From assembly GCA_027007025.1 (NCBI GenBank), contig JALTFL010000002.1, positions 167,066 through 231,065 on the forward strand: 64,000 nucleotides of DNA, read 5' to 3'. The notes under the pieces are model-generated. The model was not told the DNA's origin. It saw only the letters and a list, made by a program, of their open reading frames with translations, and ran no database searches. Below, piece after piece: positions 1,657-62,709 of the stretch. Numbering within the stretch: position 1 is the first letter of the stretch; each line of letters starts with the position of its first letter. The translations under genes and the position numbers were made by a program. This stretch comes from Nanobdellati archaeon. Lineage in GTDB: Archaea > Nanobdellota > Nanobdellia > CSSed11-243R1.

Positions 1657-2328
1657 TCAATGTGTGATATCATATTTTAATCTATTCTTTTCTTTCGGCA
1701 CCCAATGCTTTTTTATGCCTTCCGTAAATTCTTTTGGAACATATTTTGCTCTATAAATGTTGTAATTTTCATCGTCAATCCTTATAACCAACCCTTCTTT
1801 TTTTGACGCTCCAAAATTGGAATTTTCGATTAAATGTTCAAGGTTATCCTTTCCATTTATACTTCCTTCGTAGATTGGTTGGTTATACACAATTTTTGTA
1901 TTATTTAGTATTCTAGACACTTTTTTTTGTGACAAAAATTTTTGTTCATTAGCATCAAATATATCATATGCAATGAAATAGGATGGAAGAGATAGATAAT
2001 GTATCGAGTGTTTCCAAAATACCCATTCACCAATCAAATACAAATTTTTATCGGATATCTTTTTTATTTCTTTTTCGTGTGTTTTATACCACAAGTCGAG
2101 ACTTTTGAATTTTGTGTCATAACCTGTAACAATACTACTTCTGCTTTTAAAATGTGGGCCAGCTTCGTCCGCGAAAATCATTAAATTATTCCCATCAATT
2201 TTCTCTTGAATTATCACATTAGATTCTAAAAATAACTTTACTTTATCCTTGTCTAATATCTTATCTTCGCGTGTGCCCTTTGAGAATATATAGGGTGTTT
2301 TTGGAAATTTGAACTCTTGCCACTTCAT
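1657..2328 (-). CDS. ATP-dependent RNA/DNA ligase-like nucleotidyltransferase (Rnl2-like minimal domain)
   Basis: Motif I KxDG (QEKIDGNN), motif IV EGLVIR and motif V AKYVPK are in the correct order. The protein is 223 aa with no OB domain. Confidence 0.5.
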   Translation of the reverse strand: MKWQEFKFPKTPYIFSKGTREDKILDKDKVKLFLESNVIIQEKIDGNNLMIFADEAGPHFKSRSSIVTGYDTKFKSLDLWYKTHEKEIKKISDKNLYLIGEWVFWKHSIHYLSLPSYFIAYDIFDANEQKFLSQKKVSRILNNTKIVYNQPIYEGSINGKDNLEHLIENSNFGASKKEGLVIRIDDENYNIYRAKYVPKEFTEGIKKHWVPKEKNRLKYDITH

Positions 2329-3184: not shown

Positions 3185-4453
3185 ATGGATTTTGTTGAAA
3201 TTGGAGACATTTTGGATGGAAAACACACGGGCGAGAAGGTTGCGATTCGCGGATGGGTTTACAGGGAAAGAAAGCAAAAATCTGTTTCGTTTTTTTTGAT
3301 AAGGGATGATTCAGGAATAATACAAACAGCCGTCAAGCCCGGTTCTGAGTTTTGGGAAGACTCCCAGAAGCTCACGGTTGAGTCGTCAGTTAAAGTTTGG
3401 GGAACTGTCAAGGAAGACAAGAGAGCCCCGGGTGGATACGAAATCCAAGTAGAAAAACTTGAGATAGTCGGCATTGCGGAGAGGTTCCCAATCACGAAGG
3501 ACCAGAGCGAGGAATTCCTGAGAGATGTAAGGCATCTGTGGATTCGCAGCAGAAAAATGACGCTGTTCTTCAAGATAAGGAGTTTTGTGTTCGAAGCAAT
3601 ACATGAGTTTTACAAGAAGAAAGGATTCTATGAGATTCAGGCGCCAAGCTTTACGGGCTCCGCCTGCGAGGGGGGCTCTACGTTGTTCGAGGTGAAATAC
3701 TTCGACAAGAAGGCGTATTTGACGCAGTCGTGGCAGCTGTACGGCGAAGCAATGATTTTTTCCCTTCAGAAAATATATACTATTGCTCCGAGCTTCCGAG
3801 CCGAGAAAAGTAGGACAAGGAGACATCTCGCGGAATACTGGCACCACGAAATGGAAGCCGCGTGGATGCAGTTCGACGAGCTTTTGGAATTCGAGGAAGA
3901 GTTCGTAACTTTCGTGGCACATTATGTCGCGGAAAAGTGCGGCAAGGAACTCAAGGAGCTTGGAAGGGATGTTGAGGAGCTCAAGAAACTGAAACCTCCC
4001 TTCAAGAGAATGAGATATGAAGAGGCAATCAAAAAGCTCGGGAAGGAGTGGGGCTATGACTTGACGGACGCTGACGAAAGGAAACTTGTCGCGGAAATAG
4101 GTGCGCCGGTTTTCATAACCCATTTTCCGAGGGATATGAAAGCATTTTACATGCGCCCGGACCCTAAAGATAAGAAAGTCGTGCTTGCCGCTGATTTGTT
4201 GATTCCTGGAGTTGGCGAAACAACAGGCGGAAGCGAGAGAATCTATGACTTAAAGGAATTGGAAGAATCCCTTGAATTGTTCAAGCTTGACAAGAAGGAT
4301 TATGACTGGTACATTGACTTGAGGAGATATGGAACGGTTCCCCATTCAGGATTCGGACTCGGCATTGAAAGGTTGGTTATGTGGCTCGCCGGAGCGGAGC
4401 ACATAATGGAAACAATTCCATTCCCGAGAACAATTGTCCGGTTGCACCCTTAA
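3185..4453 (+). CDS. asnS: asparaginyl-tRNA synthetase (class II)
   Basis: Class II motifs are present (FRAEKSRTRRHLAEYWHHEMEAAWM, GGSERIYD, GFGLGIERLVMWL). The N-terminus aligns with archaeal AsnRS at MDFVEIGDILDG. The ORF track extends to GTG 3095. The likely ATG is 3185, with GAGGT at 3167-3171. Confidence 0.85.
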   Translation: MDFVEIGDILDGKHTGEKVAIRGWVYRERKQKSVSFFLIRDDSGIIQTAVKPGSEFWEDSQKLTVESSVKVWGTVKEDKRAPGGYEIQVEKLEIVGIAERFPITKDQSEEFLRDVRHLWIRSRKMTLFFKIRSFVFEAIHEFYKKKGFYEIQAPSFTGSACEGGSTLFEVKYFDKKAYLTQSWQLYGEAMIFSLQKIYTIAPSFRAEKSRTRRHLAEYWHHEMEAAWMQFDELLEFEEEFVTFVAHYVAEKCGKELKELGRDVEELKKLKPPFKRMRYEEAIKKLGKEWGYDLTDADERKLVAEIGAPVFITHFPRDMKAFYMRPDPKDKKVVLAADLLIPGVGETTGGSERIYDLKELEESLELFKLDKKDYDWYIDLRRYGTVPHSGFGLGIERLVMWLAGAEHIMETIPFPRTIVRLHP

Positions 4454-4511: not shown

Positions 4512-4688
4512 GGCCGCGTAGCTCAAGCACACCCTTCTTAAGAAGAAGCGTGTACGGAAGAAGGGGGGTGCGGCAAGGCGGTTAGAGCGGCAGCCTGTTA
4601 AAGAACCCTTTCTTAGAAAGAAAGCGTTCACGGAAAGAAGGGGTTGGCTGTAAGCTGTAGGTCGGCGGTTCGAATCCGCCCGCGGCCG
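4512..4688 (+). tRNA. tRNA-Asn(GTT), two introns
   Basis: Acceptor GGCCGCG/CGCGGCC with discriminator G. D-stem GCTC/GAGC. Anticodon stem GCAGC/GCTGT with loop CTGTTAA. Variable region AGGTC. T-arm GGCGG-TTCGAAT-CCGCC. Intron 1 is about 4529-4578 in the D-loop. Intron 2 is about 4602-4653 at 37/38. TATA CTTTATAAA at 4479-4487, about -27. Confidence 0.75.
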
Positions 4689-8412: not shown

Positions 8413-9516
8413 TTACTTAATTAACATCAATGTTTGGTATAAAATACCAGTGGTAAAGATAAGAATAGAATAATATATCGGTAAGTTTCCGCCTGGAATA
8501 ATCTTTTTGAATTTCTTCGTTTTTCTTGCTTTTAGGGCCATTACCATAGTCAACAAGCCGAGCATTCCGCCGGCGTATGTACCTGAGATTTGAAGGAATG
8601 TTATGAAACCCAATTTGACATACACATAAATTAGAAATGGTATGAACGCTGAAAGGAACCATGACATCCTTTTGTCAAGTCCAAAGTCGTTTACATACAC
8701 ATGTTTTATCGCGTCAGACAATGCTATGAACGGAACACCCATTGCGATTAGCACGAACAAATCCCCCAATATTCTGTAATGGGGCAGTCCAACAACAGCG
8801 ACTTCATTTACGCCAGTTCCCAAGCTGCCGACAAAAACATACGAGAACAAGGCATATGTTGACAACACTATTAGCATTGCAATTGTGCTTGCGGTTATTA
8901 CCTTTCTTTTGTCTTTTCCAAGGACTTTTTTCATTTCAGGAATTACATTGTAACCCAGACATGAGAATAATACAATCCCGAAAGGAATGAATATCTTTGA
9001 TGAGCTTAAAATGAAATTCTGTGAATTGCTTGCAGATGGAATGAAAACTGCTATCAAAAACACCAGCAGAATGATTTTTAGCGCCGCAATCGACAAATCA
9101 AGCTTGTTGAACCTCTTGAAGCCGAACAAAATCAAAGCCGCAGCAAACACGAAGAATGCAGTTCCCATTATCAATGGGCTTCCGCCAAGCATGTCCGCAA
9201 GGGCATATCCAATTGCTATAAGGTATGCTATTATCGCGGTATATATACCGAACGTTTCTGTCGCGAGCGTGAAAAATTTTCCTTTTCTTCCGAAATACTT
9301 CTTGGCGAGTCCGGATATCATATGCTCCTTTTTTTCGTTAAGCGACAATTCTGCGATATAAAGAGTCATAAATGTTGTCGCAATTCCGACGATGATGATA
9401 GTCACTAAACCTGTCAAAAATCCAATTTGTGAAAAAATATAGGGAAATCCAAGAATTGAAGCGCCGGCCACTGTGCTGACCATGAGTGCAACTGCAGTAA
9501 AAAGCTTCGAGTTCAT
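8413..9516 (-). CDS. amino acid permease (Trp/Tyr-permease / AAAP-like)
   Basis: Polytopic protein similar to aromatic amino acid permeases. The start is trimmed to an internal Met (MNSKLF) because the longer ORF would overlap the tRNA 5' end at 9560. Confidence 0.5.
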   Translation of the reverse strand: MNSKLFTAVALMVSTVAGASILGFPYIFSQIGFLTGLVTIIIVGIATTFMTLYIAELSLNEKKEHMISGLAKKYFGRKGKFFTLATETFGIYTAIIAYLIAIGYALADMLGGSPLIMGTAFFVFAAALILFGFKRFNKLDLSIAALKIILLVFLIAVFIPSASNSQNFILSSSKIFIPFGIVLFSCLGYNVIPEMKKVLGKDKRKVITASTIAMLIVLSTYALFSYVFVGSLGTGVNEVAVVGLPHYRILGDLFVLIAMGVPFIALSDAIKHVYVNDFGLDKRMSWFLSAFIPFLIYVYVKLGFITFLQISGTYAGGMLGLLTMVMALKARKTKKFKKIIPGGNLPIYYSILIFTTGILYQTLMLIK

Positions 9517-9559: not shown

Positions 9560-9812
9560 GCTCCCATAGTCTAGGAACCCTTTCTTGGGAAGAAAGCGTT
9601 CACGGAAAGAACCAAGAGAGGGATGGACATTCCGGTCAAGGATGCTGGACTCTCGCAACACCCTTTCTTAAAAGAAAGCGTGTACGGAAAGAACTTCCGT
9701 GGTGTTGGGGATATCCAGTGACCCGGGTTCAAAAGCACTTTCTCTCTTTGAAAAGAGAGAACCTGCGCTAAGAGAGAAACTTGGCGAGTGTTTGAAAGTC
9801 CCGGTGGGAGCA
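9560..9812 (+). tRNA. tRNA-Glu(CTC) (probable), three introns
   Basis: Acceptor GCTCCCA/TGGGAGC with discriminator A. D-stem GTCT/GGAT. Anticodon stem CTGGA/TCCAG with loop CTCTCG..A. T-arm CCGGG-TTCAAA..-CCCGG. Introns about 9576-9633 (D-loop), 9656-9712 (anticodon loop) and 9734-9797 (T-loop). TATA-like AT tract 9526-9545. T-tract after 9812. Confidence 0.6.
9718..9804 (+). repeat. 87-nt T-arm+T-loop-intron module, identical to 24327..24413
   Basis: GTGACCCGGGTTCAAAAGCAC...GTTTGAAAGTCCCGG reads identically in tRNA-Glu and tRNA-Gly(TCC). A diverged copy on the minus strand lies at about 38235..38292. Confidence 0.8.
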
Positions 9813-9884
9813 TTTTTTCTTTTTAGAAAATGTAAAATTTTATGAAGAATTAAATAAAAGGTATTTAATTATAATAAGAAGTAG

Positions 9885-10232
9885 GTGATGATTATCAGTG
9901 GGTTTGGATATGGTATCAAAAAGAGTACAAGCGAAGTAATTACTGGAGTTGTTGCCACCTCAGTTTATGGAGTGTTAGCAAACATGGGATTAATTCCATA
10001 TGAGATAGTTTTAGTATTTAATGTATTATCTATACTAGGGGTAATATTCCTTATAGAGAAAGCTCCATTTTGGTCGCTAACTTACTTAATTGGCTGGGTA
10101 ATTGGTATAATTTTTATGATATCTGTGGGTCTCTTGAGTTGGGTTGATATTACCATTTATATTGCTGTATCAATAGTATCTATTATGATAAAACTGGGTG
10201 TTCTTAACAGTCACTCTTCTCACTCTATATAA
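9885..10232 (+). CDS. small membrane protein
   Basis: 115 aa, 3 TM. Confidence 0.3.
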   Translation: MMIISGFGYGIKKSTSEVITGVVATSVYGVLANMGLIPYEIVLVFNVLSILGVIFLIEKAPFWSLTYLIGWVIGIIFMISVGLLSWVDITIYIAVSIVSIMIKLGVLNSHSSHSI

Positions 10233-10292
10233 TTATTTATGGTATCATTACCTCAAGGAAATTGAAAATACTTTTCAATGTATAAAAAAGTT

Positions 10293-10520
10293 TTATCTAA
10301 TTTTTTTATACATATCACATAAGTAATCATATAATGAGAACATAAATAAAAATCCTACTGTTTCACCCATGAGCCCACCTAAAAATTCAGCAGATAAAAA
10401 ATATGATACTGTTGCGCCGCCAAGTACGGAAAGGAAGGTAGTGATGATAAATGCTAATCCTATAGAGATATACACTCTTACTTTTAATCTACTTTTGAAT
10501 GTTTCAGTTGTATTTTTCAT
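10293..10520 (-). CDS. small membrane protein
   Basis: 75 aa, 2 TM. Confidence 0.25.
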   Translation of the reverse strand: MKNTTETFKSRLKVRVYISIGLAFIITTFLSVLGGATVSYFLSAEFLGGLMGETVGFLFMFSLYDYLCDMYKKIR

Positions 10521-10593
10521 GTTAATGATTAAATGGTTTGAATTATTTAAATATTTTGATGTATGTCAATAATCTATTTTGTGAAGTAGTATT

Positions 10594-11742
10594 TCACTTT
10601 TTAACAAACGCTATTAACATCACACTTGCGGCTGCGGATGTTATTGCGGCGTAGATGAACGGTGCGCTAGCCCCAACCGAATCCCAAAGAGCCCCCGCAA
10701 TCACGCTTGCTGGAAGGATAGCCAATCCTGACGCTGTCTGGTATATCCCGAGCGCAGTTCCCTTTTCGCTTTTTGGGGACAAGTCGGAAACAAATGCTCT
10801 TGACGTCCCGTCGACGAACGCAATCTGCAGCCCGTAAATGGCGAAGATAATCCATACAAGCGCATTTGAGGTTATGAATGAAAATGCTATCGCCGTCGCC
10901 CCGAGCAATACATAACCCAGCAATATTACATTTTTTCTTCCTATCTTGTCTGACCACATGCCTGCGGGCATTGAAAACACAGCATAGAAAACGTTGTATG
11001 TCAAGTAAAGCAGTGGTATAAAAGCGACGAATATTCCGAGATTCTCGGCTTTAAGTATGTAAAAAGCATAGCTGAAGTTTCCGAGGTTGAACACGACAGA
11101 TGTCAATATAAACAATTTGTAATTTCTGCTGAAATTTTTTAGAGAGAACTTTATCTTGTCCCCTATTTTGTGCCCTACATCTTTTACGAAAAACAAGATG
11201 ACTATAATTGAAAGGAAGGCAGGTATTGTGGCGTACCAGAAGATAGTCCTGTAATTTGTGGTTATATATCTCAGGAGCAAGAACGCGATTATGGTCCCTA
11301 TTATCGCCCCGCTTCTGTCCATCATCCTGTGGAACCCGAACCACTTTCCCCTTCTTTGCTTGCGTATGGATTCTGAAATCAGCGCGTCCCTCGGCGCGTC
11401 CCTTATTCCTTTCCCTATCCTGTCAGATAACCTTACCAAAAACACTTCAGCGACGTTGTTAGCTATTGCAAAAAATGGCTTTGACAGCGCTGAAAGGGAA
11501 TATCCAATTAAAACTAAAATTTTTCTTTTTTTGATTCTGTCAGAAATATGTCCTGAAAACGCCTTGAGTATCGACGCCGTGCTTGTGGCTATTCCTTCTA
11601 TTAGTCCTATTAATGACTTTGGTATTCCAAGAGTGTTGGCTAGAAATAAAGGTAAAAGCGGAAAAATCATATCGCTGCTGATGTCCGTGAATAAACTTAC
11701 CCATCCGAGAGCAATCACGTTCTTTTTAGCGTCTTTCTTCAT
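10594..11742 (-). CDS. MFS transporter
   Basis: MFS N-terminal signature (WVSLFTDISSDMIFPLLPLF), about 12 TM. Start set to the internal Met MKKDAKK. The ORF track extends to 11913. Confidence 0.6.
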   Translation of the reverse strand: MKKDAKKNVIALGWVSLFTDISSDMIFPLLPLFLANTLGIPKSLIGLIEGIATSTASILKAFSGHISDRIKKRKILVLIGYSLSALSKPFFAIANNVAEVFLVRLSDRIGKGIRDAPRDALISESIRKQRRGKWFGFHRMMDRSGAIIGTIIAFLLLRYITTNYRTIFWYATIPAFLSIIVILFFVKDVGHKIGDKIKFSLKNFSRNYKLFILTSVVFNLGNFSYAFYILKAENLGIFVAFIPLLYLTYNVFYAVFSMPAGMWSDKIGRKNVILLGYVLLGATAIAFSFITSNALVWIIFAIYGLQIAFVDGTSRAFVSDLSPKSEKGTALGIYQTASGLAILPASVIAGALWDSVGASAPFIYAAITSAAASVMLIAFVKK

Positions 11743-13488: not shown

Positions 13489-13505
13489 AGGGTAAAAATT
13501 TACAT

Positions 13506-13772
13506 GCGGGGGTGCCGGAGAGCCTTTCTTTCCGCCTTCTTAAAAAGAAGGCAGGTTGCCAAGAAGGAAAGAAAGAGCACGGAACGGTCAAACGGGCTGG
13601 GCTTAGGCGCATCTTTTCTTAAGAAGAAAAGCTGCACCAAAAGAAATCATTTTGGTGGATGCGTGGAAACCCAGTGGGTTAGTCCCTACGCGAGTAAGCC
13701 TTTTCTTGCGAAGAAAAGCCTTAAGGGAAAAGAAGCAGGATGGCTTCGCGATTTCGAATCTCGTCCCCCGCA
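13506..13772 (+). tRNA. tRNA-Leu(TAG), class II, three or more introns
   Basis: Acceptor GCGGGGG/CCCCCGC with discriminator A. Ser/Leu-type D-region (GCCGGAG...CGGTCAAACGGG). Anticodon stem CTGGG/CCCAG with loop CTTAGG..A. Long variable hairpin GGGTTAGTCCC. TTCGAAT T-loop. Introns about 13521-13584 (D-loop, looks nested), 13608-13668 (37/38) and 13695-13743 (T-stem/loop junction, with a clear 3-nt AGT bulge between CGCG and AAGCC/GGCTT helices). The T-stem has one mismatch. Confidence 0.6.
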
Positions 13773-13782
13773 TTTCATTATT

Positions 13783-13968
13783 ATGGCAAAGTGCAAATGG
13801 TACAATGTTTGTCCTATCGTGAGGTTTGTTGAGGAAGGCAGGCTCGATAGGAAGTGGGTTGAGAAATACTGCCTTGTTGGCAACAAAAAATGCATCCGTT
13901 ACCAAATGGAGGAAAAGGACGAGCCCCATCCTGACAATTTGCTTCCGGATGGAACTTACTTAAAGTAG
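13783..13968 (+). CDS. small Cys-rich protein (CxxxC...CxxxxxC)
   Basis: ATG directly after the tRNA. MAKCKWYNVCPIV...YCLVGNKKC. The longer track ORF 13504..13968 is an artefact that reads through the tRNA. Confidence 0.45.
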   Translation: MAKCKWYNVCPIVRFVEEGRLDRKWVEKYCLVGNKKCIRYQMEEKDEPHPDNLLPDGTYLK

Positions 13969-20713: not shown

Positions 20714-20786
20714 TGCCTCAGCACCGCCTTCTTAGGAAGAAGGTAGGTTGCCAAGAAATGCCTCGGTGGCATGATGTTGAGGTGAT
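20714..20786 (+). other. structured tRNA-Thr 5' leader with intron-like motif and pseudo 5'-half
   Basis: GCCTCAGCA (20715-23) can pair with TGTTGAGGT (20775-83). It encloses CCTTCTTAGGAAGAAGG-TAGGTTGCCAAGAA, a homolog of the element inside the tRNA-Leu D-loop intron. It also carries a duplicate of the tRNA 5' end, GCCTCGGTGGC, at 20760-70. Confidence 0.5.
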
Positions 20787-20940
20787 GCCTCGGTGGCGCA
20801 GTCGGTAGCGCGTAAGCCTTTTCTTTCCGTAAGAAAAGCATTAAGGGAAAAGAGATGGCTGTGCAGTTGCTTGGTAATTGGCTGCGTTTGGAAGCTTTCC
20901 AATGAGCAAAAGGTCGTGGGTTCGAATCCCACCCGAGGCT
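20787..20940 (+). tRNA. tRNA-Thr(GGT), two introns
   Basis: Acceptor GCCTCGG/CCGAGGC with discriminator T. D-arm GCGC-AGTCGGTA-GCGC. Intron 1 about 20813-20865, after position 26. Anticodon stem GTTGC/GCAAA with loop TTGGTAA. Intron 2 about 20878-20905 (28 nt, 37/38). Variable region AGGTC. T-arm GTGGG-TTCGAAT-CCCAC. Confidence 0.6.
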
Positions 20941-24182: not shown

Positions 24183-24421
24183 GCGCCGTTAGTCTAGCGA
24201 CCTTTTCTCTCGAGAAAAGCTCGACCAAAAGAGAGAAGGTTGGACAATGGTTAGGATCCGAGCCTTCCACCAACCCTTTCTTTCCAAAAGAAAGCGTTGA
24301 CGGAAAGAAAGGTAGGAGGTGAGCTCGTGACCCGGGTTCAAAAGCACTTTCTCTCTTTGAAAAGAGAGAACCTGCGCTAAGAGAGAAACTTGGCGAGTGT
24401 TTGAAAGTCCCGGACGGCGCA
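24183..24421 (+). tRNA. tRNA-Gly(TCC), three introns
   Basis: Acceptor GCGCCGT/ACGGCGC with discriminator A. D GTCT-AGC..GGTTA-GGAT. Anticodon stem CGAGC/GCTCG with loop CTTCCA..A. Variable region TGAC. T-arm CCGGG-TTCAAA..-CCCGG. Introns about 24199-24248 (D-loop), 24270-24321 (37/38) and 24343-24407 (T-loop). T7 tract after 24421. Confidence 0.7.
24327..24413 (+). repeat. second copy of the 87-nt T-arm+intron module
   Basis: See 9718..9804. Confidence 0.8.
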
Positions 24422-25257: not shown

Positions 25258-25333
25258 AAGCACCTTCTTAAAGAGAAGCTGCACCAAGAAAAGAAAGTTT
25301 TATCAAAGAAATTATTTATAATAAATACTAAAA
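25258..25333 (+). other. intron-like element between ORF stop and tRNA-Gly(CCC)
   Basis: CCTTCTTAAAGAGAAGCTGCACCAAGAAAAGAAAG is homologous to the anticodon-loop intron of tRNA-Leu (13611-13648). Confidence 0.5.
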
Positions 25334-25454
25334 GCGCCACTAGTCTATTGGTAGGATACGAGCTTCCCAAGACCTTTTCTTTGGGAAAGAAAAGCTCTAC
25401 CAAAAGAAAGGTTGTAAACAGCTCGGGAGCCGGGTTCGATTCCCGGGTGGCGCA
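25334..25454 (+). tRNA. tRNA-Gly(CCC), one canonical anticodon-loop intron
   Basis: Acceptor GCGCCAC/GTGGCGC with discriminator A. D GTCT-ATTGGTA-GGAT. Anticodon stem CGAGC/GCTCG with loop TTCCCAA. Intron about 25371-25420 (50 nt, 37/38). Variable region GGAG. T-arm CCGGG-TTCGATT-CCCGG. Confidence 0.8.
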
Positions 25455-32818: not shown

Positions 32819-32885
32819 ATTGTCAATATAAGCATTACTGGACAACACCCTAAACTATAAAAAGGAAAATTTGGTAGTAATTTTC

Positions 32886-33923
32886 ATGGCAAAGAAATCT
32901 CCTAAAGAGGAAAAAGAAATTATTGAAGAAAAGGCAACTGATGTTGAAACAGCTCCAGAGCAAGTAACGGAGCCGGAGGAGAAATTTGAAATAGAAGATA
33001 TTCCTGGAGTCGGCGCGACGACAGCCCGGAAGATGAGGAGCGCCGGTTATGATGATCCAATGGGAATTGCCACGTCTAATCCTCTAAGCCTTGCGGAAGT
33101 TTGTGAGATTGGTGAGGCGACCGCAAGGAAGATTATACAAGCCGCACGCACTCATCTTAAGATGGATTTTGTAACTGGTGCGGAAATGCTCGAACGTATG
33201 AAAAAGATAAAAAAGATAACAACAGGTTCAAAGGCACTTGATAGTTTAATCGGCGGGGGAATAGAAACCCAAGCCATAACAGAAGCGTACGGCGCTTACG
33301 GAAGCGGAAAGTCACAGATGGCTTTTCAGCTCGCTATTAATGCACAACTTCCAGAGGAACAGGGAGGTTTGAATGGTGATGTAGTTTGGGTGGACACCGA
33401 AGGAACATTCCGTCCGAACAGAGTAATACAGCTTGCCGAAGCAAAAGGGTTGAATCCGAAGGAAGCCCTTGAAAGAATTCATGTCGCGAGAGCTTTTTCA
33501 GCGGACCATCAGATTTTGCTTGTTGAAAAGATACCTGAACTTTTCAAGAAATATCCTAACATAAAATTAATCATAGTTGATTCTCTCACTTCTATCTTTA
33601 GAAGCGAGTATGTGGGCAGGGGGACTCTTGCTGAGAGGCAGCAAAAACTCAACAAACACATACATACTTTGCAGAGATTGGCAGACAGGTATAATGTCGC
33701 AGTTTACATAACCAATCAGGTTATGGCAAAGCCTGATATGTTCTTTGGAGATCCGACACAAGCTGTAGGTGGACACGTGCTTGGTCACGCATCAACATAT
33801 AGGATTTATTTAAGGCATTCGAAAGGCGACAAGAGAGTAGCCAAACTTGTTGACTCACCGTGTTTACCAGAAGGCGAATGCGCGTTTAGGATAACAGAAG
33901 AAGGAATTCAAGATATTGATTAA
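32886..33923 (+). CDS. radA: DNA repair and recombination protein RadA
   Basis: HhH ([15 protein letters not shown]), Walker [10 protein letters not shown], Walker B LIIVDSL. ATG 32886. The track starts at TTG 32871. Confidence 0.85.
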
Positions 33924-38201: not shown

Positions 38202-38393
38202 CGCCGGGACTGGGACTTCCACGCACCGCCAAGAGTTTCTCTCTTAGCGCAGGTTCTCTCTTTTCAAAGAGAGAAAGTGCTTTTGAACCCAGACATCCCG
38301 AAGGAAACAGGCTCTCGTAGACTTCTTTGGTCGAGCTTTCTTCCAAAGAAAGGTCATTCCAGGCCTGCGCAATACCAAGTTATGCGATCCCGG
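38202..38393 (-). tRNA. tRNA-Ser(GGA), class II, two introns
   Basis: Minus strand. Acceptor GCCGGGA/TCCCGGC with discriminator G. Anticodon stem CAGGC/GCCTG with loop CTGGAA(A/T). Long variable arm TTTCCTTCGGGATGT. T-arm CTGGG-TTCAAA..-CCCAG. Introns at 37/38 (about 43 nt) and in the T-loop (about 65 nt). TATA TTTATAAAAC on the minus strand at 38419-38428, about -30. T5 tract downstream. Confidence 0.7.
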
Positions 38394-38420
38394 CACTAAA
38401 CATAAAGAAATAAATCTGTT

Positions 38421-40071: not shown

Positions 40072-40716
40072 ATGAGAAAACAACTTGAGGATATGCTTGG
40101 TATTCACACACGTGAAGAATTTCTAAAAGTAATTGAAGAAAAATATAAAAAAGACCCAGATTATAGATTATCTCTTGATCCATCTCTATATAGGTTGGGG
40201 TATAAGAGACGCTTTGATTGGAATCTTGCTGATTCAGAAGGAAATTTCTCTCTAAGTAGGTTGGAAGAAGAAATTGTTGGGAAATCTAGAAGAGAAACTA
40301 ATGTTGTTTGGACAAAAGAAACAATTTTGTATTGCGTAAAATATTTTGTTGATAAGAGTATGTTTAGCTCAGAAAATCCAATGAATGTAGAAATTAGACT
40401 TCCGAGTGGGGATTTGGTTAATGTTTCTCCAAAGAAAGTTTATAACATTGCTTCAAAAAAAAGAAAGATGTTTTCAAGAAATAATAGATTCGTTGGTTTG
40501 AGTGGTTTAGTGAACATGGCATGTGGGGAATATATTGAACCTAATAATATGGACTTAAAAGAGGAAGTAGTTAGGTGGTGGTATTCCACTCACGGTTTTT
40601 TTGGAGTTGATAAGATGATGATTTCTCCAGAGATGTCATGGGCGCAAATTGAAAAACATACAGGTAGAACAAGGCGGCAAATTATCAGTGAGATGGGTAA
40701 ACACCAACAGGCATAG
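40072..40716 (+). CDS. hypothetical protein
   Basis: 214 aa. Confidence 0.35.
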   Translation: MRKQLEDMLGIHTREEFLKVIEEKYKKDPDYRLSLDPSLYRLGYKRRFDWNLADSEGNFSLSRLEEEIVGKSRRETNVVWTKETILYCVKYFVDKSMFSSENPMNVEIRLPSGDLVNVSPKKVYNIASKKRKMFSRNNRFVGLSGLVNMACGEYIEPNNMDLKEEVVRWWYSTHGFFGVDKMMISPEMSWAQIEKHTGRTRRQIISEMGKHQQA

Positions 40717-41671
40717 TAACCCTGTCAAGTTTTACCGCTATTCCCTTTTCAGCCTCAACCATGCCCTGCGAGCGCATTTGTGCAAATCCGATACCTACAA
40801 GCTCGTTCTTTAATGTCATTACTGCAACTTCATTTCCTTTTTTTATACCCTCTTCGACTTTTGAGATTCCAGGGACTCCAAGGGGCGCGCCGTGAGTAAG
40901 GGAATCAACTGTAGAATCAAATACCCATACCTTCGGCACGAGCTTTGTGACATTTTCCATTGGCTGCATGACATACCTCAAATATTTTTCGTTGCCCTCT
41001 TCCTTCCAGAAGGCGTATGCATCCTCCAAGTCCTGAAGGGTTGCCATTCTTTCGTCTTCTTTGAATCCGCCTGCCTTTGTTCTTCTCAATTCTGCCATGT
41101 GAGCGCGGGTTCCAGCCATCGAGCCGAGCTGCTCGCAAAGTCTTCGTATGTATGTTCCCTTTTCAGTTCCGGCTCTGAATAACACATCTCTTCCTTTTTT
41201 CTCTATGAATTCCAAATAATAAATCTCCCTTTCTCTGACTACACGCTTCACGTGGGAGCGCTTTGGCGGGAGTTGTTCTATCTTGCCTATGAATTTTTTC
41301 ATGGCATCTCTTATTTTTCCCTCATGTATGTCAGAGTGCAGGTGCATGAGCGCGACATATTCCTTTCCGGACAGCAGAAACAATCTCATTATCTTCGTGG
41401 CGTTGTTTATTGCAATTGGAAGGACTCCTGTTACTGCCGGGTCCAGCGTCCCTCCGTGCCCTGCCTTTTTGGCGTGAAGTATTTTTTTTACCCAGTCGCT
41501 TACCTGGTGGCTTGTGGGTCCCTTCGGCTTGTCAAGATTTATGATTCCATTTTTTAAATATTCATCAATTGGCCTCTTTTCAGGAATGTAACCATAGCTA
41601 AAGTCAGTCTCATCTTCCTTGCGGATGAGTATTTCTCTTTTTTCCATTTTCTCGTACGGCAGTTGTCCCAT
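40685..41671 (-). CDS. cbf5: H/ACA RNP pseudouridine synthase Cbf5 (TruB family)
   Basis: Catalytic GHGGTLDP motif. KPKGPTSH. C-terminal PUA domain. Confidence 0.85.
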   Translation of the reverse strand: MGQLPYEKMEKREILIRKEDETDFSYGYIPEKRPIDEYLKNGIINLDKPKGPTSHQVSDWVKKILHAKKAGHGGTLDPAVTGVLPIAINNATKIMRLFLLSGKEYVALMHLHSDIHEGKIRDAMKKFIGKIEQLPPKRSHVKRVVREREIYYLEFIEKKGRDVLFRAGTEKGTYIRRLCEQLGSMAGTRAHMAELRRTKAGGFKEDERMATLQDLEDAYAFWKEEGNEKYLRYVMQPMENVTKLVPKVWVFDSTVDSLTHGAPLGVPGISKVEEGIKKGNEVAVMTLKNELVGIGFAQMRSQGMVEAEKGIAVKLDRVTMPVGVYPSH

Positions 41672-60797: not shown

Positions 60798-62261
60798 TTA
60801 TCCTTTGACAACACCAAGGGGCTTCAGTCTTGCGACAAGATTTCCTATTCCTGCCTCTTGACTGACTCTTGCGACTTCGTCGATGTCTTTGTAGGCGCCC
60901 GGCGCTTCCTCCGCAACCCCACGCTTTGACGCTGATTTTATTATAATGCCTCTTTCTCCAAGCTGCTTCTTAATGATATCTGCTTGATACTGTCGCATTG
61001 CGGCGTGCCTGCTCATCAACCTTCCAGCCCCGTGCGCAGTTGAGCCGAACGTCTTTTCCATTGATGTTGAGCTTCCAGCCAGTACGTAGCTTGCGGTTCC
61101 CATACTTCCGGGAATAAGCACAGGTTGCCCAACATCCCTATAATCTATTGGTATCTCAGGGCGCCCTGGACCAAATGCCCGGGTTGCGCCCTTCCTGTGA
61201 ACATAAACTTTTCTCAATTTTCCGTTAATCTTATGCTCTTCGACTTTTGCGAGGTTGTGAGCTACGTCATATACGAGTTCCATGCCGAGGGATTCCCAGT
61301 CTTTTTTGAAAACTTCTTCGAATGCCTGCCTACTCCAGTGCATAATCATCTGTCTGTTTGTCCACGCGAAGTTTGCCGCCGCGCTCATTGCCTTGAAATA
61401 TTTTTCAGCGAGCTCGCTTCCTGACGGCGCGTAAATCAATTCCCTGTCGGGTAAAGTTTTAATTATGTCCGGAAATGTTTTTTCCATCTCGCGGAGGTAG
61501 TCTGAACATACTTGGTGTCCGAATCCGCGGCTACCCGTGTGAATCATCAACGTTGCTTGTCCTTCCTCAAGCCCGAATGCCTTGGCTGCTTTTTTGTCAA
61601 ATATTTTTTCGACATATTGAACTTCAAGGAAATGGTTTCCTGCTCCGAGGCTTCCTAGTTGTGGCATACCTCTCTTTTTGGCTTCCTTGCTGGTGTATCT
61701 CGGGTCCGCGATTTTCAATCTTCCATTTTCTTCTATGTGTTTCAAGTCCCTTTCGGCACCGTATTCATTTTCAACAGCCCACTCAACACCATATTTCAAG
61801 ACTTTGTTAAACTCATCGACGTTTTTTATTCTAGTGAGTCCCTTGCTGCCGAGCCCGCTTGGAACATTCTTAAACAGGGCGTTTAGAATTGGTTTCATAT
61901 TATCTTCGGCATCTTTTTTTGTTAGGTTTGTTCTTATCAATCTAACTCCACAATTTATATCATAACCAATTCCGCCCGGCGATATCCCACCGTTTTCATA
62001 GTCGAGTGCCGCGACTCCACCTATTGGGAATCCATATCCCTCGTGTCCGTCTGGAAGAATTATGGAATACTTGTAAATGCCCGGCAGTGTCGCTACCCCC
62101 GCGCCCTGCGTTAGTGTCCTGTCTTGTTTCATTTTGTTCAACAATTTTTCAGACGCAAAAACTCTTCCTGGAACGTTCATATTTGGCACGGTTCCAACTG
62201 GGATTTCCCATTCGACGTCGCTTATTTTCTTCAATTCCAAATTATTGATTTCTTTCATCAT
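60798..62261 (-). CDS. rtcB: RNA-splicing ligase RtcB (tRNA 3'-phosphate/5'-OH ligase)
   Basis: Metal-binding GYDINCG, NHF, HTGSRGFGHQV, HNLA motifs. Start at ATGATG after the GAGGTGG SD. The track extends to TTG 62285. Confidence 0.9.
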   Translation of the reverse strand: MMKEINNLELKKISDVEWEIPVGTVPNMNVPGRVFASEKLLNKMKQDRTLTQGAGVATLPGIYKYSIILPDGHEGYGFPIGGVAALDYENGGISPGGIGYDINCGVRLIRTNLTKKDAEDNMKPILNALFKNVPSGLGSKGLTRIKNVDEFNKVLKYGVEWAVENEYGAERDLKHIEENGRLKIADPRYTSKEAKKRGMPQLGSLGAGNHFLEVQYVEKIFDKKAAKAFGLEEGQATLMIHTGSRGFGHQVCSDYLREMEKTFPDIIKTLPDRELIYAPSGSELAEKYFKAMSAAANFAWTNRQMIMHWSRQAFEEVFKKDWESLGMELVYDVAHNLAKVEEHKINGKLRKVYVHRKGATRAFGPGRPEIPIDYRDVGQPVLIPGSMGTASYVLAGSSTSMEKTFGSTAHGAGRLMSRHAAMRQYQADIIKKQLGERGIIIKSASKRGVAEEAPGAYKDIDEVARVSQEAGIGNLVARLKPLGVVKG

Positions 62262-62274
62262 TACCACCTCAGAA

Positions 62275-62709
62275 TCATATATCAATTAACACCTTTATTA
62301 TGTATTTATTATTTTCTTTTTTTATTTCCATATAATGATATGTTATTGCCTTTACATGAGTGCCTTCCTCGTGCTTTTCAGGGTTGTACTTTTCGCCCCC
62401 CGCCTCTGCTCTAAGATACCATTTTCCTTCTTTTTCATCGATTTTTTTAACTTTGACATTATGGAACACCAACCCTTCGGCGTCCTGCAGTATTAGAAAT
62501 TGCGAGAGGAAATCAAACAAGAGAGATTCCTTATCCTCTGACGAAATATGGATGGTTTTTTTCACGTTTTTGCCCACATTGTCCGAAACCACAATCGCAT
62601 AGCCTAATCCCACAGCCGCGTTTTCAAATGCTTCTTCTAGTGTATCTCCCCACGATTCAATATACATGTCCGCCGTGTGCTCCAAAAACCTGAATTTTTT
62701 TTTGCTCAT
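62275..62709 (-). CDS. archease (RtcB activator)
   Basis: FRFLEHTADMYIESWG N-terminal archease signature. Directly upstream of rtcB. Confidence 0.8.
   Translation of the reverse strand: MSKKKFRFLEHTADMYIESWGDTLEEAFENAAVGLGYAIVVSDNVGKNVKKTIHISSEDKESLLFDFLSQFLILQDAEGLVFHNVKVKKIDEKEGKWYLRAEAGGEKYNPEKHEEGTHVKAITYHYMEIKKENNKYIIKVLIDI

Follow-up and report, generated by a model that had tools for sequence, protein, structure and literature searches.

Why should two tRNA genes that serve different amino acids be identical over exon and intron alike? The question arises from a 64-kb stretch of DNA of a Nanobdellati archaeon (contig JALTFL010000002.1, positions 167,066 to 231,065; hereafter the window), in which the genes of tRNA-Glu(CTC) and tRNA-Gly(TCC) share an 87-nucleotide (nt) module. 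The two copies, 9718-9804 and 24327-24413, agree at 87/87 bases and the match breaks off exactly at both borders. The module comprises 16 exon bases, a 65-nt intron and 6 exon bases, the interruption by a bulge-helix-bulge (BHB) intron lying between T-loop positions 59 and 60. We propose, with a probability of about 0.75, that short-tract gene conversion, ongoing among the T-loop intron copies, made the Glu and Gly introns identical. The original prediction had recognized the 87-nt identity, the 65-nt intron in both genes and a tRNA-Ser gene carrying the same intron with a different 3' end. All of this is confirmed, the two introns spanning 9734-9798 and 24343-24407, and the prediction's assignment of the three genes to Glu, Gly(TCC) and Ser is upheld by ARAGORN after in silico removal of the introns.

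The first 47 nt of the Glu/Gly intron are found exactly at 38235-38281 on the minus strand, in tRNA-Ser(GGA). This repeat core occurs three times in the window (9734, 24343 and, on the minus strand, 38281) and has zero matches in any shuffled control sequence. Between Glu and Ser, unbroken identity extends over up to 57 nt (~38234-38290), namely GGGTTCAAA and the first 48 intron bases, while the last ~19 nt of the Ser intron differ by a 2-nt indel, a 1-nt indel and 3 substitutions. Read as a mosaic, the Ser copy matches throughout these 57 nt, whereas 6 of the next 21 columns differ (Fisher test on slightly different counts, 0/58 vs 7/22, p = 5e-5). The same 3' end, GCGTGGAAG, is present in a tRNA-Ser intron from the Woesearchaeota (L005).

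The exon part of the module has a history of its own. A metagenome collection was scanned for GACCCGGGTTCAAA, followed by 40-70 bases and then AGTCCCGG, which gave 74 loci (L011-L084). About 9 of the 74 are not interrupted tRNA genes, the T-arm preceding an unrelated feature there; the rest are, for the most part, tRNAs of Asp-like, Glu or Gly type that combine the exact T-arm GACCCGGGTTCAAA..TCCCGG with diverse, unrelated 59/60 introns. Within this T-arm, 59/60 seems to be a site at which introns are widespread. The T-arm exons are also unchanged in tRNA-Glu of L087 and L089 and in tRNA-Gly(TCC) of L085, three relatives described below. Judged by these comparisons, the identity of the 22 exon bases between Glu and Gly far predates that of the intron copies. 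Since the T-arm is old and occurs in orthologues without the intron or with another one, exon identity is uninformative on recency. The original prediction had argued for recent conversion or recombination between tRNA genes from an identity spanning exon and intron; that argument falls with the age of the T-arm, and the event itself is supported by comparative and within-species data. A separate observation is that 59/60 introns of many unrelated sequences are common in tRNA-Asp-like genes (CCAGGGC acceptor 3' strand and G73) from many environments.

The syntenic locus of a sister species (L087, GCA_021162365.1) encodes an Nre protein and a permease with 86% and 79% amino-acid identity, respectively, to their counterparts in the window, where the permease ORF (open reading frame) has 367 amino acids (aa). 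Its tRNA-Glu(CTC) has identical exons and keeps the other two introns at 94% identity (15/16 intron, 53/56 aligned columns; 37/38 intron, 54/58; 107/114 in total). The 59/60 intron is cleanly missing from this orthologue, as befits a late gain in the window lineage, and the uninterrupted sequence TTCAAA|TCCCGG matches the 59/60 junction. In the metagenome-assembled genome (MAG) archaeon isolate Dive96_bin10.467 (L089; Nre 82%), the T-arm intron of tRNA-Glu lies at 53/54 and has another sequence. The syntenic, more distant L085 has the same exons in its tRNA-Gly(TCC), interrupted at 59/60 by a 45-nt intron of unrelated sequence. In silico splicing of the window tRNA-Glu gives a 75-nt cloverleaf, and orthologues with identical exons are present in L087, L089 and L094, the last a sister strain. 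DUF7121, the neighbour of tRNA-Gly, has 3 homologues only, which led to the orthologue L085 and to one contig without the Gly(TCC) gene; the Nre-anchored loci L090-L093 are not syntenic for Glu or Gly.

The sister strain is represented by a 528-kb scaffold (L094) that is 98.6% identical to the window over 9.8 kb and comes from the same sample as L010, an ENA assembly (REYS20-1 scaffold_640). Its tRNA-Glu equals the window gene over the first 222 nt, that is, through all exons up to that point, the two other introns and 48 nt of the T-loop intron, the sole difference being a cluster in the last 17 intron bases. The intron ends in CT-TGGCGAGTGTTTGAAAG in the window and in CTCTTGGCGGTGTATGAAAG in L094, the two 3' ends across strains being CTTGGCGAGTGTTTGAAAG and CTCTTGGCGGTGTATGAAAG; the L094 end has CTCTTGGCGGTG in common with the window tRNA-Ser intron. 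Clustered changes in an otherwise identical gene that match paralogous sequence argue for a short conversion tract, and since the variable tract matches the intron of another tRNA, the donor is taken to be a paralogous intron. The Gly copy from the L094 sample is identical to the window version. Of these two strains, the window strain is thus the one in which Glu and Gly agree in full.

Mosaicism is also seen in the Dive96 MAG, in which the T-loop introns of tRNA-Arg and tRNA-Ala are exact in their 3' halves and differ in the first hairpin. In the metagenome Ga0078972, a tRNA-Gly(GCC) (L026) and a tRNA-Glu(CTC) (L029) have the same T-arm and an identical 62-nt intron unlike that of the window. 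L067, 95.9% identical to L029 over 4.3 kb, has identical tRNA-Glu exons and, in the position of the 62-nt intron, an unrelated 69-nt one. Because paralogues are identical within a lineage and orthologues differ between close relatives, the pattern is one of homogenisation and turnover, not of conservation. The intron-less sister species, the 98.6% strain with the changed last 17 intron bases and the second lineage with another intron form a natural time series. Together, these comparisons point to DNA-level short-patch conversion and, of interest to specialists in tRNA gene evolution, open the way in which introns spread to tests on metagenome populations of DPANN archaea.

We propose that the flanking exon bases of tRNA-Glu and tRNA-Gly would already have been alike through an ancestral shared T-arm. 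The tRNA-Glu copy would have arisen once the sister species had split off, or else have disappeared in that species, and DNA patches would still be copied among the three T-loop introns (Glu, Gly and Ser) by use of exon and intron homology. After divergence from the 98.6%-identical strain, the 3' end of the Glu intron in the window strain would have been made identical to the Gly copy. The superfamily to which these introns belong has spread, at six positions or more, through all seven tRNA genes of the window and many of those of related Nanoarchaeota and Woesearchaeota. As RadA is encoded in the window, homologous-recombination machinery is present. Several points weigh against this proposal. 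Copying could have run from Gly to Glu or the other way. On the 3' side, only 6 exon bases are homologous, little for classical recombination by RadA. L087 may have lost its intron precisely instead of the window lineage having gained one, and L026 and L029 may come from different genomes. On the side of processing, no splicing endonuclease (EndA) was found in the 30 window ORFs scanned, the 64 kb being part of a genome.

In a variant of our proposal that shares its mechanism but dates the first copy further back, the intron has long resided in both genes and is continually homogenised (concerted evolution), L087 having lost the Glu copy by precise deletion. An identical Glu/Gly intron in two separate lineages (the window; L026/L029) and a 59/60 intron in tRNA-Gly(TCC) even of the distant L085 are in line with it; however, it needs a precise loss in L087 as well as a position shift in Dive96, and we consider it unlikely.

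Movement at the RNA level would have endonuclease and ligase reverse-splice the excised intron into the BHB-compatible T-loop of a different pre-tRNA, the product being reverse-transcribed and recombined into the genome. Glu and Gly, having the same exon context, offer the same BHB target, the window encodes RtcB together with a second RNA ligase (PF09414), and the mechanism of archaeal tRNA-intron transposition is called unknown in the literature (PMC4090602). The same review, however, favours a DNA-level process. Moreover, what is shared are partial tracts with ends within introns (in the Ser mosaic, the 3' cluster of L094, and Arg and Ala of Dive96), a pattern that whole-intron movement would not lead one to expect. 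Tracts that cross exon-intron borders and end inside introns are what is seen here, and there is no reverse transcriptase among the window ORFs tested. Such a route is decidedly unlikely.

The original prediction had offered a selected functional unit, such as a stable circular intron RNA, as an alternative. In this reading, the module is old and kept by purifying selection for a sequence-specific function of the intron RNA (stable circular RNA or guide). The intron structure is indeed strongly non-random (z ~ -4), its two hairpins covary and the family as a whole keeps its pyrimidine/purine/purine architecture, which may be under constraint. For this sequence, however, the idea is unsupported and highly improbable: the intron is missing in L087 tRNA-Glu, located elsewhere in L089 and unrelated in L085 tRNA-Gly; it is polymorphic between 98.6%-identical strains and replaced between 96%-identical relatives; and it matches no Rfam family.

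An assembly artefact, that is, a collapsed or chimeric join of two tRNA loci, is very unlikely, to the point of being negligible, because each copy lies within a complete gene with mutually matching acceptor 5' and 3' strands and several assemblies agree, even though metagenome assemblers may mis-join at ~90-nt repeats. A 21.2-kb stretch is 99.98% identical to NCBI GCA_015522785.1 (L009), which has both modules; the 99.0%-identical L010 has the Gly module, and the Glu locus stands in a fourth contig with its own variant. NCBI labels close homologues of the window proteins "Nanoarchaeota archaeon", which places the host among the DPANN archaea.

The window contains seven tRNA genes, all of them interrupted, with 16 introns at D-loop/15-16, 27/28, 37/38, 53/54 and 59/60 (Table 1); a structure-based scan of the window found no tRNA genes beyond these seven. 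ARAGORN found no tRNA in the raw window and Rfam found one only (20787-20940), because the genes are interrupted several times. The introns were therefore removed by hand and the spliced sequences run through ARAGORN, which then reported Glu(ctc), Gly(tcc), Ser(gga), Leu(tag), Thr(ggt) and Gly(ccc) as well as an Asn(GTT) gene, whose splice retained one extra A and was read with a 4-base anticodon. Orthologues of tRNA-Gly(TCC) comprise one with the same exons in L085 and the identical module in L009 and L010. The T-arm of tRNA-Gly(CCC) has the same T-stem, another variable loop and another T-loop. In the public annotation, a 154-aa ORF is called at 13504-13968 (gene 5826-6290 of L009), overlapping tRNA-Leu; this is probably a spurious gene call due to the undetected tRNA. 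The tRNA complements of such genomes are under-counted, the window genes escaping ARAGORN and all but one escaping Rfam, and gene callers place spurious ORFs over undetected intron-rich tRNA genes.

Table 1. Coordinates of tRNA genes, introns, module parts and selected protein genes in the window.
Feature	Position	Strand	Evidence
tRNA-Glu(CTC), three introns; exons 9560-9574, 9631-9655, 9713-9733, 9799-9812	9560-9812	+	ARAGORN
D-loop intron (15/16) of tRNA-Glu, 56 nt, relaxed BHB (HBh'-type)	9575-9630	+	
Canonical 37/38 intron of tRNA-Glu, 57 nt	9656-9712	+	
Module exon part of tRNA-Glu: position 43, variable loop, T-stem 5' strand, T-loop 54-59 (GTGACCCGGGTTCAAA)	9718-9733	+	
T-loop intron 59/60 of tRNA-Glu, 65 nt, AGCAC family	9734-9798	+	
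Module exon part of tRNA-Glu: T60 and T-stem 3' strand (TCCCGG)	9799-9804	+	
tRNA-Gly(TCC); introns 15/16 (24198-24247), 37/38 (24270-24321), 59/60 (24343-24407)	24183-24421	+	
Second copy of the 87-nt module, in tRNA-Gly(TCC) (intron 24343-24407)	24327-24413	+	
tRNA-Ser(GGA); 43-nt 37/38 intron and 66-nt 59/60 intron	38202-38394	-	
Third, mosaic copy of the T-loop intron, 66 nt, in tRNA-Ser	38216-38281	-	
tRNA-Asn(GTT); two introns (D-loop, 37/38) of the same superfamily as the T-loop introns	4512-4688	+	
tRNA-Leu(TAG); three introns (D-loop, 37/38, 53/54)	13506-13772	+	
tRNA-Thr(GGT); two introns (27/28, 37/38)	20787-20940	+	
tRNA-Gly(CCC); one 37/38 intron, T-arm uninterrupted	25334-25454	+	
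Intron units	4534-4575, 4608-4640, 9580-9612, 9663-9695, 9740-9783, 13535-13580, 13613-13650, 13700-13740, 24349-24392, 25374-25412		
RtcB, tRNA-splicing ligase	60798-62285	-	Pfam PF01139, E = 6.7e-175
RadA recombinase	32871-33923	+	Pfam PF08423 Rad51, E = 2.4e-91
RtcB, second RNA ligase, RadA and Cbf5 loci, taken together	1657-2328 (-), 32871-33923 (+), 40685-41671 (-), 60798-62285 (-)		

Ten members of the AGCAC T-loop intron family, drawn from the window, the Dive96_bin10.467 MAG, a Candidatus Woesearchaeota MAG and one metagenome contig, were aligned and their consensus was derived with RNAalifold. The consensus has the form hBHBh': next to the T-stem, TTCA of the exon pairs with TGAA of the intron over 4 bp; the bulges AA|A and AG|T set this helix off from an inner one, GCAC(C):(G)GTGC, and two hairpins lie within the intron. 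The BHB motif, two 3-nt bulges with 4 bp between them, is present, with one additional unpaired base opposite the 5' bulge, and 13 predicted pairs retain pairing via changes on both sides. The minimum-energy fold of a single sequence favours a slightly different register near the junction. Removal of the introns from Glu, Gly and Ser restores a canonical cloverleaf, as required of BHB tRNA introns. In the 37/38 intron of tRNA-Glu, the BHB traced by hand has a central helix CUCU:GGGG and bulges CG|C and AU|A. When the genome collection was searched with the AGCAC-family pattern, 5 real matches in two MAGs and 3 chance bacterial matches were obtained; two scans of viral contigs, for the T-loop intron pattern and for the unit motif, returned 0 matches each, hence no link to known viruses is apparent.

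We infer the splicing enzymology, like the recombination pathway. Together with the T-stem and the two bulges (AA|A and AG|U), the 4-bp helix that pairs TTCA of the exon with UGAA of the intron would offer both sites to the splicing endonuclease, a step that is proposed because archaeal tRNA splicing is known to work in this way. RtcB would then join the exons and, by analogy to other archaea, may circularise the excised introns. The window also encodes a second RNA ligase (PF09414) and Cbf5.

Other classes of element were considered and rejected. Group I and group II self-splicing introns have a ribozyme core of several hundred nt that is recognisable by covariance models; the present intron has 65 nt and no Rfam intron match at gathering score or E <= 1. 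Transposons of the miniature inverted-repeat transposable element (MITE) or insertion sequence (IS) type are marked by terminal inverted repeats, a target-site duplication and copies outside tRNA genes; here there is no flanking direct repeat and, within the 64 kb, the units lie in or adjoin tRNA genes. A box C/D guide RNA encoded by an intron occurs in archaeal tRNA-Trp; this possibility is rejected here for lack of an Rfam match and of RUGAUGA or CUGA boxes on reading. A riboswitch is rejected for lack of an Rfam match.

The T-loop introns belong to a wider superfamily. Fifteen of the 16 window introns follow one architecture, which runs from a pyrimidine strand, invariably on the 5' arm, through a short loop, its purine complement and a 6-9-nt linker to a second purine tract; an example unit reads CCTTTCTT-GGGA-AGAAAG-CGTTCAC-GGAAAGAA. 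The same design is found in L003-L008, L026, L029, L067 and L087-L093. Many pairs of window introns are 70-79% identical despite their different positions, with pairwise identities of 65/65 for Glu/Gly, 61/67 for Glu/Ser, 46/58 (79%) for Leu-53/54 vs Thr-27/28 and 42/53 for Asn-37/38 vs Glu-15/16; the core of the Asn 37/38 intron (37 nt, 4603-4639) is 95% identical to that of the Glu 15/16 intron. Similarity above 70% between introns of different tRNA identities, which defines the transposed group in Thermoproteales, is thereby reached, and by that 70% criterion the window introns are to be counted as one group on sequence grounds.

The second purine tract is a mirror image of the first in 32 distinct units and a direct copy in 11, with 18 ties, and it covaries with the pyrimidine strand, the observed match being reached by 0/5000 partner permutations; the copies being related, neither the mirror counts nor the permutation result are true probabilities. 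Mirror homopurine repeats adjoining a hairpin have the topology of an intramolecular triplex, and the mirror repeat of triplex or H-DNA is present in the sequence, in tracts that are short (7-12 nt). RNAfold sometimes pairs the second purine tract with the pyrimidine strand, and an alternative Watson-Crick partnership is possible for symmetric tracts, whereas asymmetric tracts favour the mirror relation; in the consensus of the T-loop introns, part of the second purine tract lies within the stem of the second hairpin. It may be that the introns are a self-propagating class in which a predicted triplex- or H-DNA-like fold of single-stranded DNA (or RNA) stalls the replication or transcription of strongly expressed tRNA genes, thereby provoking short-patch conversion. 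We regard this as doubtful; if true, it would supply a mechanism for the 'transposition' of archaeal tRNA introns.

The T-loop intron is a BHB tRNA intron of the "transposed" group, and it is new in its lineage, in its intron design and in the evidence for conversion within a species. The closest precedent is the transposed tRNA introns of Thermoproteales (Fujishima 2010), whose mechanism is called unknown in the summaries given in PMC4033280 and PMC4090602. As far as these summaries describe them, the Thermoproteales introns resemble those of the window in late gains and in insertion sites restricted to places able to form a BHB. Unlike these crenarchaeal cases, the host here belongs to the DPANN/Nanoarchaeota, the family is built of pyrimidine strand, loop, purine strand, linker and second purine strand, and 100% identity, polymorphism within the species and mosaic tracts point to short-patch conversion. 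At the heterogeneous tRNA-Thr(GGU) locus of Caldiarchaeum subterraneum (Sugahara et al. 2012, PMC3293823), intron variation at the population level, a 5' tRNA fragment upstream and a link to integrating elements are likewise found; in contrast, there is no element inside the tRNA gene here and the donor is a paralogous intron, not a plasmid. In yeast, intergenic conversion equalises dispersed tRNA genes, exons and introns included, among copies of the same isodecoder (PMC4090602). Homogenisation of dispersed tRNA genes and their introns by conversion is the shared feature, whereas here the genes involved serve different amino acids and conversion does not reach beyond the intron and the T-arm they share.

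The genes of the window resemble what is known of DPANN archaea in their many non-canonical or multiple introns, in the relaxed BHB in the D-loop and in the failure of standard tools to find the full tRNA set. Fujishima and co-workers reportedly described, in 2011, disrupted tRNA genes of DPANN archaea and broad-specificity splicing endonucleases. The literature search, incomplete in coverage, returned no description of this intron family, of intron sharing or turnover in DPANN or of triplex-type tRNA introns. A further study (Kaneta 2018, PMC5829648) catalogues intron numbers and positions and examines the splicing enzyme.

Introns at other positions vary as well. The orthologues of tRNA-Thr(GGT) in relatives with Nre identities of 83-86% (L087 13046-13167, L092 4393-4563, L093 2229-2353) differ from the window gene (20787-20940) in number and content of introns: some have 27/28 and 37/38, others 37/38 only, and the 37/38 sequences vary. 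Since these orthologues also differ, intron turnover is general and not limited to the T-loop. Compound D-loop introns are present in tRNA-Gly(GCC) and tRNA-Glu(CTC) of the other lineage (L026 5338-5480; L029, minus strand, ~9287-9400; L067, minus strand, ~3612-3760), where a 39-nt unit (GAGCCTTTCTTAGAAAGAAAGCCTCGGGAAAGAAACTGA) is repeated in tandem, the second unit lying inside a hairpin loop; the copy number of this unit differs between L067 and L029.

The surroundings of several tRNA genes hold further elements. In the sister strain (L094 1081-2378; L010 1-848), a gene for a 406-aa tyrosine integrase lies directly 3' of tRNA-Glu. A 101-nt repeat at L010 748-848 consists of the last 13 nt of tRNA-Glu (CCCGGTGGGAGCA) and 88 nt that include the integrase start, CCCGGTGGGAGCA beginning one base past the 59/60 splice site. 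The integrase region looks like an integrated element flanked by att repeats. It is missing from the window, whose sequence at 9813-10595 is dissimilar to both L094 and L010.

A copy of the tRNA's own 5' end, together with an intron-like element, lies directly upstream of the gene at 20716-20786 of the window and at L089 1623-1672, L086 786-827 and L085 ~1500-1587. The copies read GCCTCGGTGGCA before the window tRNA-Thr, GCTCCCAT before the Dive96 tRNA-Glu and GCGCCACTAATC before tRNA-Gly(CCC), and they are similar to the tRNA fragments seen in Caldiarchaeum (PMC3293823) or, alternatively, to a duplicated target. Although a MITE is rejected for the T-loop intron, some tRNA genes do have, in front of them, intron-like elements flanked by 5'-exon duplications. 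A solitary intron-like element (AGCACCTTCTTAAAGAGAAGCTGCACCAAGAAAAGAAAG) stands outside the tRNA genes at 25258-25298, between the DUF7121 stop and a TATA-like AAAGTTTTATC upstream of tRNA-Gly(CCC), and is found in the same place in two relatives (L085 1424-1470, L086 ~728-760).

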